Position numbers and translations under genes: made by a program. A DNA stretch of 284 nucleotides, from assembly GCF_003334385.1 (NCBI RefSeq), contig NZ_QOWN01000214.1; one strand, written 5' to 3'. The notes under the pieces are model-generated. The model was not told the DNA's origin and made no database searches. It saw nothing but the letters and a program-made list of their open reading frames with translations. Below, in pieces: positions 1 through 284 of the stretch (the stretch's first letter is position 1; every line of letters starts with the position of its first letter). The stretch is from Escherichia coli (GTDB lineage Bacteria > Pseudomonadota > Gammaproteobacteria > Enterobacterales > Enterobacteriaceae).

Positions 1-284
1 TGTCTGTTCGGCCCGGCCTTACTGGCTGGCTATATCACCGAACGCATAACCCGGTTGTTCCATATTCGCTGGCTGGCAGGCGTATTTCTGACGATTGCCG
101 GAATGATCATCAGCTTCATGTGGGGACTTGATGGTAAACATATCGCGCTGGAGGCTCACACCTTTGACTCTGTGAAATTTATTCTGACCACCGCTCTCGC
201 CGGTGGTCTGCTGGCTGTTCCCCTGCAGATCAAAAACATTCAGCAGAACGGGATCACACCAGAAGATATCAGCAAGGAAATTAA
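1..284 (+). CDS. Internal fragment of a gene for a predicted integral membrane protein (possible transporter or permease; family not identified). Partial at both ends; reading frame phase 1, last complete codon at 280-282.
   Basis: Seen in sequence: frame +1 is open for all 94 codons, while + frames 2 and 3 have stops at 47-49 (taa) and 129-131 (tga). The translation has one ~20-residue hydrophobic segment (WLAGVFLTIAGMIISFMWGL, codons 24-43), a second of ~16 residues (FILTTALAGGLLAVPL, codons 60-75), and the tail of another at the 5' edge (CLFGPALLAGYI). A short basic loop (TERITRLFHIR) between the first two fits the positive-inside rule for a cytoplasmic loop. Codon usage is strongly CTG-biased for Leu (9 of 13), typical of highly used enterobacterial codons. 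Inference: membrane protein; the exact family would need a homology search. Confidence 0.7.

Follow-up and report, generated by a model that had tools for sequence, protein, structure and literature searches.

What protein does this stretch of Escherichia coli DNA encode, and what does that protein do? A reading of the letters alone (the original prediction) had placed the 284-nucleotide stretch, all of which is referred to here as the window, wholly inside a plus-strand open reading frame (ORF) for a membrane protein of unassigned family, and had guessed that the product might be an MFS-type or other secondary transporter. A megablast search of complete E. coli genomes identified the window as nucleotides 115-398 of the MG1655 yeeR gene, with identity at 284 of 284 positions, and the annotated yeeR frame corresponds to frame +1 of the window, which is the only one of the six frames that is free of stop codons across the 284 nucleotides. 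The placement inside a plus-strand membrane-protein ORF is thus confirmed. The window derives from the interior of yeeR and encodes the end of one transmembrane helix (TM2) together with the whole of two others (TM3 and TM4) within the N-terminal anchor of the protein, in agreement with the two to three helices and short loops that had been predicted (Table 1). The protein left unnamed is YeeR, as K-12 records annotate the matching feature as 'yeeR: protein YeeR'; published work has yet to assign it a function (PMC4807369, PMC11551758), and the second of these sources, a 2024 survey of the y-ome, still lists yeeR. In MG1655 the gene belongs to the CP4-44 prophage remnant, where agn43/flu is its immediate upstream neighbour; the matching records of MG1655, E2865 and the Klebsiella plasmid ps01 all show this placement, directly after agn43/flu within an island of the CP4-44 type. 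The window is matched in 2,208 of 5,426 complete E. coli genomes (~40%), with up to five copies per genome.

Several lines of evidence, separate from the annotation, indicate that the window is coding. Among 20,000 shuffled versions of the window, 1.2% kept frame +1 free of stops and 6.0% kept at least one of the six frames free of them, while an open frame that contained two or more hydrophobic segments (19 residues, Kyte-Doolittle value of at least 1.5) occurred in 0.02%. Comparison of the window with a 94%-identical E. coli allele revealed 16 differences, 10 of them at third codon positions, and these produce six amino acid changes in frame +1, all conservative, as compared to 12 in frame +2 and 14 in frame +3. 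The third-position bias and the small number of changes in frame +1, together with hundreds of protein homologs, provide independent support for coding in this frame. Homologs are abundant and support frame +1, the ORF runs well past the window at both ends, and the minus strand contains ORFs of only 27-46 residues, which argues against both a spurious ORF and a gene on the opposite strand. An Rfam scan of the window produced no match, nor did a comparison of its DNA with phage records. As originally noted, there is nothing intrinsically unusual about the window, which is a plain coding fragment with no odd feature at the nucleotide level; it is an ordinary stretch of a gene that is already annotated and whose function is uncharacterised.

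Table 1. Features of the window, its position in MG1655, and genes found near relatives of yeeR. Loop locations follow the charge-based topology.
Feature	Position	Strand	Basis or content
Internal yeeR CDS fragment, codons 39-132 plus 2 nt of codon 133	1..284	+	Frame +1
Window in MG1655 (L001)	12001-12284		100% identity
yeeR CDS in MG1655 (L001)	11887-13419		100% identity of the window
TM2, C-terminal 13 residues (39-51; full TM2 ~33-51)	1..39	+	Kyte-Doolittle 2.26 for 33-51
Putative cytoplasmic loop ERITRLFHIRW, residues 52-62	40..72	+	Mean K+R 2.85 in ~11 residues, net +2.0
TM3, residues 63-81	73..129	+	Kyte-Doolittle 2.03; AlphaFold helix 61-82, pLDDT ~91
Putative periplasmic loop DGKHIALEAHT, residues 82-92	130..162	+	Mean K+R 0.36, net -0.9
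TM4, residues 93-111	163..219	+	Kyte-Doolittle 1.51-1.66; AlphaFold helices 93-108 and 111-120
Putative cytoplasmic TM4-TM5 loop, first part (residues 112-132 of 112-138)	220..284	+	Charge counts
Pseudomonas locus (L003)			RES-Xre toxin-antitoxin
Methylomonas locus (L004)			HicAB, TIR-domain gene, IS66
Dyella locus (L006)			Mobile-element or defence signature absent; sole such locus
Herbaspirillum locus (L011)			Integrase island; complete Azaca adjoining (ZacA/B/C, E 7e-82 to 5e-219)
Deefgea locus (L019)			Two HepT-type modules (HepT/MNT), IS21
Alcaligenes locus (L020)			Integrase island; type II CBASS adjoining (SAVED-2TM effector, E 1e-106; CD-NTase, E1/E2, JAB)
Locus of the 68%-identical Enterobacteriaceae homolog (L015)			WYL, PDC-M09A (E 3e-120), PDC-M09B (E 5e-214), then a 37-bp gap upstream of the homolog
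Same locus of the 68%-identical homolog (L015)			DndBCDE and PIN; Dnd downstream
L022			Mrr, PLD-SNF2, PDC-M27C

The N-terminal part of YeeR contains six hydrophobic helices (residues 4-22, 33-51, 63-81, 93-111, 139-157 and 164-182), and the helices of its AlphaFold model (residues 2-57, 61-82 and 93-120) agree with the reading of TM2-TM4 in the window. Residues 83-92 are non-helical in this model. The topology of the protein was derived solely from family-wide counts of lysine and arginine residues (K+R) in the loops of 97 homologs, interpreted by the positive-inside rule. K+R-rich and K+R-poor loops alternate along the N-terminal block; beyond the loops listed in Table 1, residues 112-138 contain a mean of 4.79 K+R in ~27 residues (net charge +2.0), and residues 158-163, which are presumably periplasmic, contain a mean of ~0.3. 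This alternation would put the stretch beyond TM6, with the Cys4 motif and the nuclease-fold head described below, on the cytoplasmic side. In the C-terminal module, the loops formed by residues 569-637 and 657-682 are both strongly positive, such that not every hydrophobic helix located there need span the membrane, and part of the module may form a buried or insertable hairpin. YeeR is detected by proteomics as an inner-membrane protein (PMC8144685).

The intact protein is 838 residues in length, and a search with it found 414 relatives, most of which contain 805-860 residues, originate from Gamma- and Betaproteobacteria, and share 30-68% identity. Its AlphaFold model has a mean pLDDT of 78, reaching ~90 over residues 1-340 and 85-93 over residues 410-540. 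The model gives good support for an ordered series of modules in which the six transmembrane helices are followed by a predicted tandem winged helix, a Cys4 zinc-ribbon-like motif, a domain with a PD-(D/E)xK fold, a glycine-zipper module and a tail. Specifically, residues 205-325 form a helix/β-hairpin region, the Cys-rich element is defined by invariant residues C333, C336, C356 and C360, and residues 410-535 adopt an α-β-β-β-α-β arrangement. The C-terminal part consists of long helices with hydrophobic and glycine-zipper segments and then a helical tail; the glycine-zipper stretch (residues 670-736) is poorly modelled, with a pLDDT of 29-48.

Database searches with the full protein returned little beyond its own name. 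Pfam PF27347 (YeeR_C) is precomputed on essentially all homologs, among them the 99%-identical cluster P0001 and remote relatives of other architecture, and covers the C-terminal part of YeeR, whereas the window encodes the N-terminal transmembrane block and lies outside this conserved module. PF27347, which is named after YeeR itself, is the sole family label. A search of the local Pfam-A library, from which PF27347 is absent, returned only a non-significant match to C19orf12; NCBIfam returned no match, PHROGs returned only a marginal tape-measure match on the glycine-rich region (E = 0.001), and a sequence search of the PDB with the single YeeR sequence and a domain profile returned nothing below E = 0.3.

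Conservation is distributed unevenly along the protein. In an alignment of 97 sequences, the mean column identity is 0.33 for the region encoded by the window (residues 39-132), which is the lowest in the protein, as compared to 0.73 for the central head (residues 401-560) and 0.66 for the glycine-zipper region (residues 641-740). A profile of the central domain matched 1,051 clusters at 50% identity among 1.84 billion representatives, and in many of these clusters the domain is positioned near the N-terminus and the proteins are extended by Sel1/TPR repeats, coiled coils or β-helix-like repeats. Proteobacteria and Firmicutes both carry the YeeR_C module, which spans at least ~1,050 clusters at 50% identity. 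We aligned 77 proteins of other architectures with YeeR (78 sequences in total, 24-35% identity to YeeR). The N-terminal transmembrane segment is absent in 61 of the 78, and hydrophobic or glycine-zipper segments that follow the head are retained in 75, which indicates that the constant unit of the family comprises the head, the glycine-zipper module and the tail. Pfam searches of these 78 sequences returned sporadic Sel1/TPR repeats, zinc ribbons and weak matches to glycine-zipper families, and no informative enzymatic partner. The six-helix block that holds the window is thus well supported as a poorly conserved add-on of the YeeR subfamily, whose features are those of an anchor and not of a transport domain.

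These findings bear directly on the guess that the window belongs to a transporter. MFS and other secondary transporters are, like YeeR, polytopic α-helical proteins of the inner membrane; however, the N-terminal helices of YeeR number only six, are poorly conserved and are dispensable in the wider family. The protein has a single six-helix block and not the 12-helix (6+6) arrangement of the MFS fold, it matches no transporter family in Pfam or NCBIfam, and Foldseek comparisons with MFS, ABC and SLC structures yielded probabilities of at most 0.08 and TM-scores of ~0.1. In addition, the six helices are followed by ~350 residues, placed in the cytoplasm, that harbour the winged-helix, zinc-ribbon-like and nuclease-fold domains. 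It is therefore extremely improbable that YeeR is a transporter or channel for small solutes, whether MFS-like or another secondary carrier; that it is not a transporter is well supported, and this part of the original prediction is set aside.

Inspection of the central domain provides a more informative view of the protein. Residues E415, D422, D442, R443, Q451, K453, E485 and P487 are invariant in the 97 YeeR-type sequences and the 78 sequences of the other-architecture alignment. The putative catalytic residues among them are, in the model, E415 in α1, D442 at the start of β2, the Q451-x-K453 motif at the end of β3, and E485 in β4. The assignment of this domain to the restriction-endonuclease fold, with its invariant polar residues at the position of the superfamily's active site, is well supported by the predicted structure. 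Its core fold and the placement of its conserved acidic and lysine residues match those of PD-(D/E)xK nucleases, among them N.BspD6I, Hjc, NucS, MspJI and the B. pseudomallei CdiA-CT toxin. However, YeeR has no detectable sequence similarity to these enzymes, its domain is embedded between two membrane modules, and its putative catalytic glutamine, Q451, stands where the second acidic residue of the D...(D/E)-x-K motif would be. E415 or E485 might compensate for this replacement; nucleases of the superfamily often have a further acidic residue in α1.

A second point of comparison is PDC-M09B, a component of PDC-M09, which in PADLOC is only a candidate defence system and is unvalidated. Two PADLOC models for PDC-M09B match YeeR in a collinear manner, at residues 434-497 (E = 4e-5) and 576-731 (E = 5e-6), and they also match two Firmicutes-type members of the YeeR family. 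The match is nevertheless weak and partial, 5e-6 at best as compared to 5e-214 over the full length of a genuine PDC-M09B. The motifs KHGEIAE, R..DY, Q-S-K-F and YHIPKD are invariant in a 38-sequence alignment of PDC-M09B and parallel the YeeR motifs GHGFAAE, DR, Q-T-K-Y and LEVPKD. Profile-profile alignment with hhalign pairs D442, Q451, K453, P487 and D489 of YeeR with D109, Q118, K120, P152 and D154 of PDC-M09B (E = 1.9e-4, probability 47%); this moderate support required the 38-sequence profile, as an alignment against one PDC-M09B sequence was uninformative (probability 1.6%). Both proteins thus contain, in succession, HG..AE, D, Q-x-K-(Y/F) and (V/I)P-x-D elements and then glycine-rich hydrophobic helices. 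In contrast to YeeR, PDC-M09B is 481 residues long, is paired with PDC-M09A, and lacks the N-terminal transmembrane block, the winged helices and the zinc ribbon. Adjacent PDC-M09A and PDC-M09B genes are found at none of the E. coli yeeR loci and occur only in the island of the 68%-identical Enterobacteriaceae homolog. Judged by their sequences, YeeR and PDC-M09B are probably remote homologs that do not belong to the same system.

The genomic surroundings of YeeR relatives were surveyed in about ten loci that were picked for their long contigs; the variable regions in which they lie carry many kinds of cargo (Table 1). The YeeR-family gene has no universal partner and stands alone in these regions. 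In this small, non-random sample, every neighbourhood examined outside E. coli, with one exception, had defence-type genes within 10 kb, counted as CBASS, Azaca, Dnd, Mrr/PLD-SNF2, TIR, toxin-antitoxin pairs and WYL regulators. A block of four genes, comprising WYL, PDC-M09A, PDC-M09B and the YeeR homolog, recurs with three different downstream flanks; the second consists of an AAA/SLFN-like helicase and a resolvase, and the third of a PDC-M27C helicase, Mrr and PLD-SNF2. Islands in Aeromonas contain PDC-M09AB without a YeeR homolog. On a conjugative plasmid of dairy Lactococcus, a gene with the YeeR_C module directly follows a WYL gene within IS6-flanked cargo, with an Abi gene nearby, and the gene after it encodes a BnzA-N-like domain (E 1e-13); a domain of this type is fused to the C-terminus of two other members of the YeeR family. 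The lactococcal YeeR_C-module protein is annotated as 'glycine zipper family protein'.

Other candidate relationships suggested by the neighbourhoods were rejected. The genes directly upstream in Alcaligenes and Enterobacteriaceae are unrelated to one another and do not represent a conserved upstream partner, the Sel1-like gene that overlaps a Firmicutes-type member is not PDC-M09A, and a search for Pfam domains in PDC-M09A found none. The family is also not typical phage cargo, as tblastn returned one match among 50,697 phage records and six loci were found among 2.9 million viral contigs in IMG/VR. In a single Oscillospirales phage, the YeeR_C module lies between an endolysin and an invertase.

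The defence-type neighbours, the block of WYL and PDC-M09AB, the invariant head, the remote likeness to PDC-M09B and the link to BnzA-N-like domains together suggest that YeeR may act in immunity. We judge the chances to be about even that intact YeeR serves mobile elements as a single-gene factor for immunity or exclusion, with a tethered nuclease-like head and a glycine-zipper output; its nuclease or sensor activity, its permeabilisation of the membrane and its role in defence are all putative. In such a mechanism, the six-helix anchor would hold the cytoplasmic head against the inner membrane, and the head, which would bind nucleic acid and resemble a nuclease, would recognise or cut the nucleic acid of an invading phage or plasmid at the cytoplasmic face of the membrane. 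The glycine-zipper module would then serve as a membrane-active effector or as an oligomerisation element, in the style of abortive infection. Membrane-linked effectors and sensors of anti-phage defence include the SAVED-2TM effectors of CBASS, RexB of phage lambda, KwaA of Kiwa, and membrane-bound nucleases that act on entering phage DNA. YeeR would share their general logic, in that a cytoplasmic head that binds nucleic acid or a ligand is combined with transmembrane helices and encoded on mobile elements in defence islands. However, no homology to these proteins was detected, and YeeR is a single polypeptide with a domain set of its own, so that the likeness is one of mode of action. Literature searches for yeeR with defence terms, and for PDC-M09, found among the papers covered none that ties resistance to phages or plasmids to YeeR or to its relatives.

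The same surroundings could instead mean that YeeR serves the island on which it resides, with a part in the processing of the island's DNA, its transfer, entry exclusion or addiction. In all cases the gene resides on an integrase-bounded island, on a plasmid or within IS-flanked cargo, and its neighbours include AlpA, YfjJ/YagK, DUF932, antirestriction, RadC, ParB and SSB genes, a set typical of modules for transfer or establishment. Yet neither its position nor its neighbours are constant, and many related islands lack it, such as those of Aeromonas noted above, which is unlike a core transfer function, and the Dyella copy is found without a mobile-element signature. Moreover, the WYL-type regulators and the adjacent CBASS, Azaca and Dnd systems suggest that the gene is cargo and not backbone. 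A role for the island itself is therefore quite improbable.

In E. coli, the gene is embedded in a different context. Its loci contain agn43 upstream and irmA downstream, and in uropathogenic strains agn43-yeeR-irmA is a single transcript controlled by OxyR and Dam (PMC4807369). At these loci yeeR lies in an adhesin/immune-mimic operon with no recognised defence gene adjoining, which counts against a defence role. This arrangement raises the possibility that YeeR acts in the biogenesis, secretion or regulation of Ag43 or of IrmA, a cytokine-receptor mimic, or in aggregation, biofilm formation or interaction with the host. The co-transcription of the three genes from a phase-variable promoter is consistent with such a role, as are the joint rise of flu and yeeR in oxyR or gcvB mutants (PMC8614746), the duplication and conservation of the cluster of flu, yeeR and irmA among pathogenic E. 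coli (PMC6480617, PMC9431211), and the presence of an autotransporter gene directly upstream in every E. coli-type locus examined. However, IrmA is released normally without Ag43 and YeeR (PMC4807369), the Ag43 of K-12 works despite a truncated yeeR, and irmA of strain 042 has a promoter of its own (PMC9431211). An adjacent autotransporter or IrmA gene is also missing from the homologs in Pseudomonas, Methylomonas, Herbaspirillum, Alcaligenes, Deefgea, Dyella and Firmicutes, and winged-helix, zinc-ribbon-like and nuclease-fold domains in the cytoplasm are unlike those of a secretion helper. A function in Ag43 or IrmA biology is thus improbable, and immunity is the reading that we prefer for the intact protein.

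Whether the gene that contains the window encodes this intact protein is a separate matter, as K-12 carries a shortened form of 510 residues. K-12 YeeR follows the 838-residue protein to residue 507 and then ends in a foreign 'EER*'. At the nucleotide level, positions 1-1521 of K-12 yeeR align with the long gene, and the next bases align inside radC/yeeS; this jump indicates the loss, by deletion, of the 3' third of yeeR together with irmA, the genes for DUF905, DUF932 and antirestriction, and the 5' end of radC. K-12 yeeR is thus well supported as a deletion remnant, which accords with earlier descriptions of the locus (PMC6480617, PMC4807369). The 3' segment that is absent from K-12 yeeR was found in 2,190 of the 5,426 complete genomes, a number close to the 2,208 that match the window, such that most carriers hold the long form. 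The sequence of the window is identical in the long and K-12 forms, and the allele type is consequently not readable from the window. It could therefore be argued that yeeR in the genome from which the window originates is a non-functional, 510-residue remnant of the K-12 type, which would lack the glycine-zipper module and the tail and merely occupy the membrane. The identity of the window to K-12 yeeR, the deletion that ends the K-12 allele, a pseudogene label in one paper (PMC8614746) and frameshifted yeeR copies in other strains are in keeping with a remnant. Nevertheless, the window is equally identical to many strains whose records give the product as a long hypothetical protein, and the predominance of the long form among carriers points the same way; we therefore regard a remnant as unlikely here. 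A remnant would concern one allele only and would leave the reading of the family unaffected.

For the family as a whole, we tentatively propose, with somewhat less than even confidence, that proteins with the YeeR_C module constitute an unrecognised and widespread family of single-protein immunity factors, in which an endonuclease-fold head is joined to a glycine zipper. PDC-M09B would represent a distant branch of this family, WYL regulators and BnzA-N-like domains would be its recurring partners, and the E. coli copy would be phase-variable together with Ag43. A y-ome gene that is present in ~40% of complete E. coli genomes, often in multiple copies, and that is co-expressed with Ag43 in pathogens thereby gains a testable hypothesis. 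If the defence reading is true, YeeR would be a new single-gene member of the immune repertoire and would offer a mechanistic handle on PDC-M09, and phase variation of the agn43 promoter would switch susceptibility to phages or plasmids along with aggregation.

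The first hairpin of the YeeR membrane anchor is rendered differently by the two predictions available. AlphaFold models residues 2-57, of which residues 39-57 are encoded by nucleotides 1-57 of the window, as a single unbroken 56-residue helix, whereas hydropathy splits the same stretch into two transmembrane segments (4-22 and 33-51), and the linker at residues 20-32, predicted to face the periplasm, carries ~1.7 K+R; any topology assigned to this hairpin is therefore tentative. In the glycine-rich membrane region, residues 567-732 give a marginal match to tail tape-measure proteins in PHROGs (E = 0.001), and YeeR relatives show weak Pfam matches to C19orf12, TraT, DUF1269 and Gly-zipper_Omp. 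A common glycine-zipper composition is probably a better explanation of these matches than homology.

Comparison of the MG1655 locus with that of E. coli E2865 places the K-12 deletion junction directly after yeeR nucleotide 1521, where the sequence continues inside radC/yeeS, and this junction produces the 'EER*' ending of K-12 YeeR. The deletion removed the 3' third of yeeR, irmA, the DUF905 and DUF932 genes and an antirestriction gene. The yeeR/irmA cluster decays often, as E2865 illustrates: its yeeR is annotated as frameshifted, and an IS66-family insertion splits its irmA.

Coordinates of the features discussed
Feature	Locus or protein	Position
K-12 yeeR 3' end	L001 (MG1655)	13405-13420
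Region compared with K-12	L014 (E. coli E2865)	8887-17000
Frameshifted yeeR	L014	8887-11402
irmA split by IS66-family insertion	L014	11478-14395
cah-yeeR-irmA cluster region	L002 (ps01)	1-16284
YeeR_C-module phage gene	L027 (PV036458.1)	5401-7353
BnzA-N-terminus-like domain	L026 (Lactococcus plasmid)	10923-11780
BnzA-N-terminus-like domain	P0234 (YeeR relative)	residues 582-698
BnzA-N-terminus-like domain	P0168 (YeeR relative)	residues 552-605
Sel1-like gene overlapped by YeeR_C-module gene	L008 (Firmicutes-type)	1971-3836
WYL regulator, PDC-M09A, PDC-M09B, YeeR homolog	L015	5761-11523
Same four-gene block	L021	6244-11423
Same four-gene block	L022	880-6647

On Klebsiella pneumoniae plasmid ps01 (NZ_CP094480.1), a 228-kb IncF record labelled 'linear', the cah-yeeR-irmA cluster sits amid purE, ppiB and ecpA, which are typical E. 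coli chromosomal genes. Either this plasmid has captured a large piece of chromosome, or the record is an artefact of assembly or contamination. Three further yeeR matches in the plasmid collection PLSDB (H17, H18 and H22) fall in records of 4.8-4.9 Mb typed as non-mobilizable; these are evidently chromosomes, and plasmid counts for yeeR are inflated because several such records are included. The Oscillospirales gut phage encodes a 650-residue protein whose YeeR_C module, the Pfam module common to YeeR relatives, is 33% identical to YeeR residues 409-811; its gene is flanked by an endolysin and a DNA invertase, a position typical of accessory genes.

BnzA belongs to the Bunzi defence system. 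A domain resembling its N-terminus is encoded immediately 3' of the lactococcal YeeR_C-module gene and is fused C-terminally in two further family members, which links it to the family by fusion or adjacency. Sel1/TPR repeats are a second possible partner: in the Firmicutes-type locus, the 5' end of a Sel1-like repeat gene (621 aa) lies within the YeeR_C-module gene, and in other family members such repeats are fused N-terminally (P0140) or C-terminally (P0236). The conserved four-gene block is followed by three different flanks, namely Dnd (L015), AAA/SLFN-like and resolvase genes (L021), and PDC-M27C, Mrr and PLD-SNF2 (L022). Its recurrence in front of such different neighbors suggests that in some lineages the PADLOC candidate defence system PDC-M09 may form a larger unit, with a YeeR-type protein among its components.
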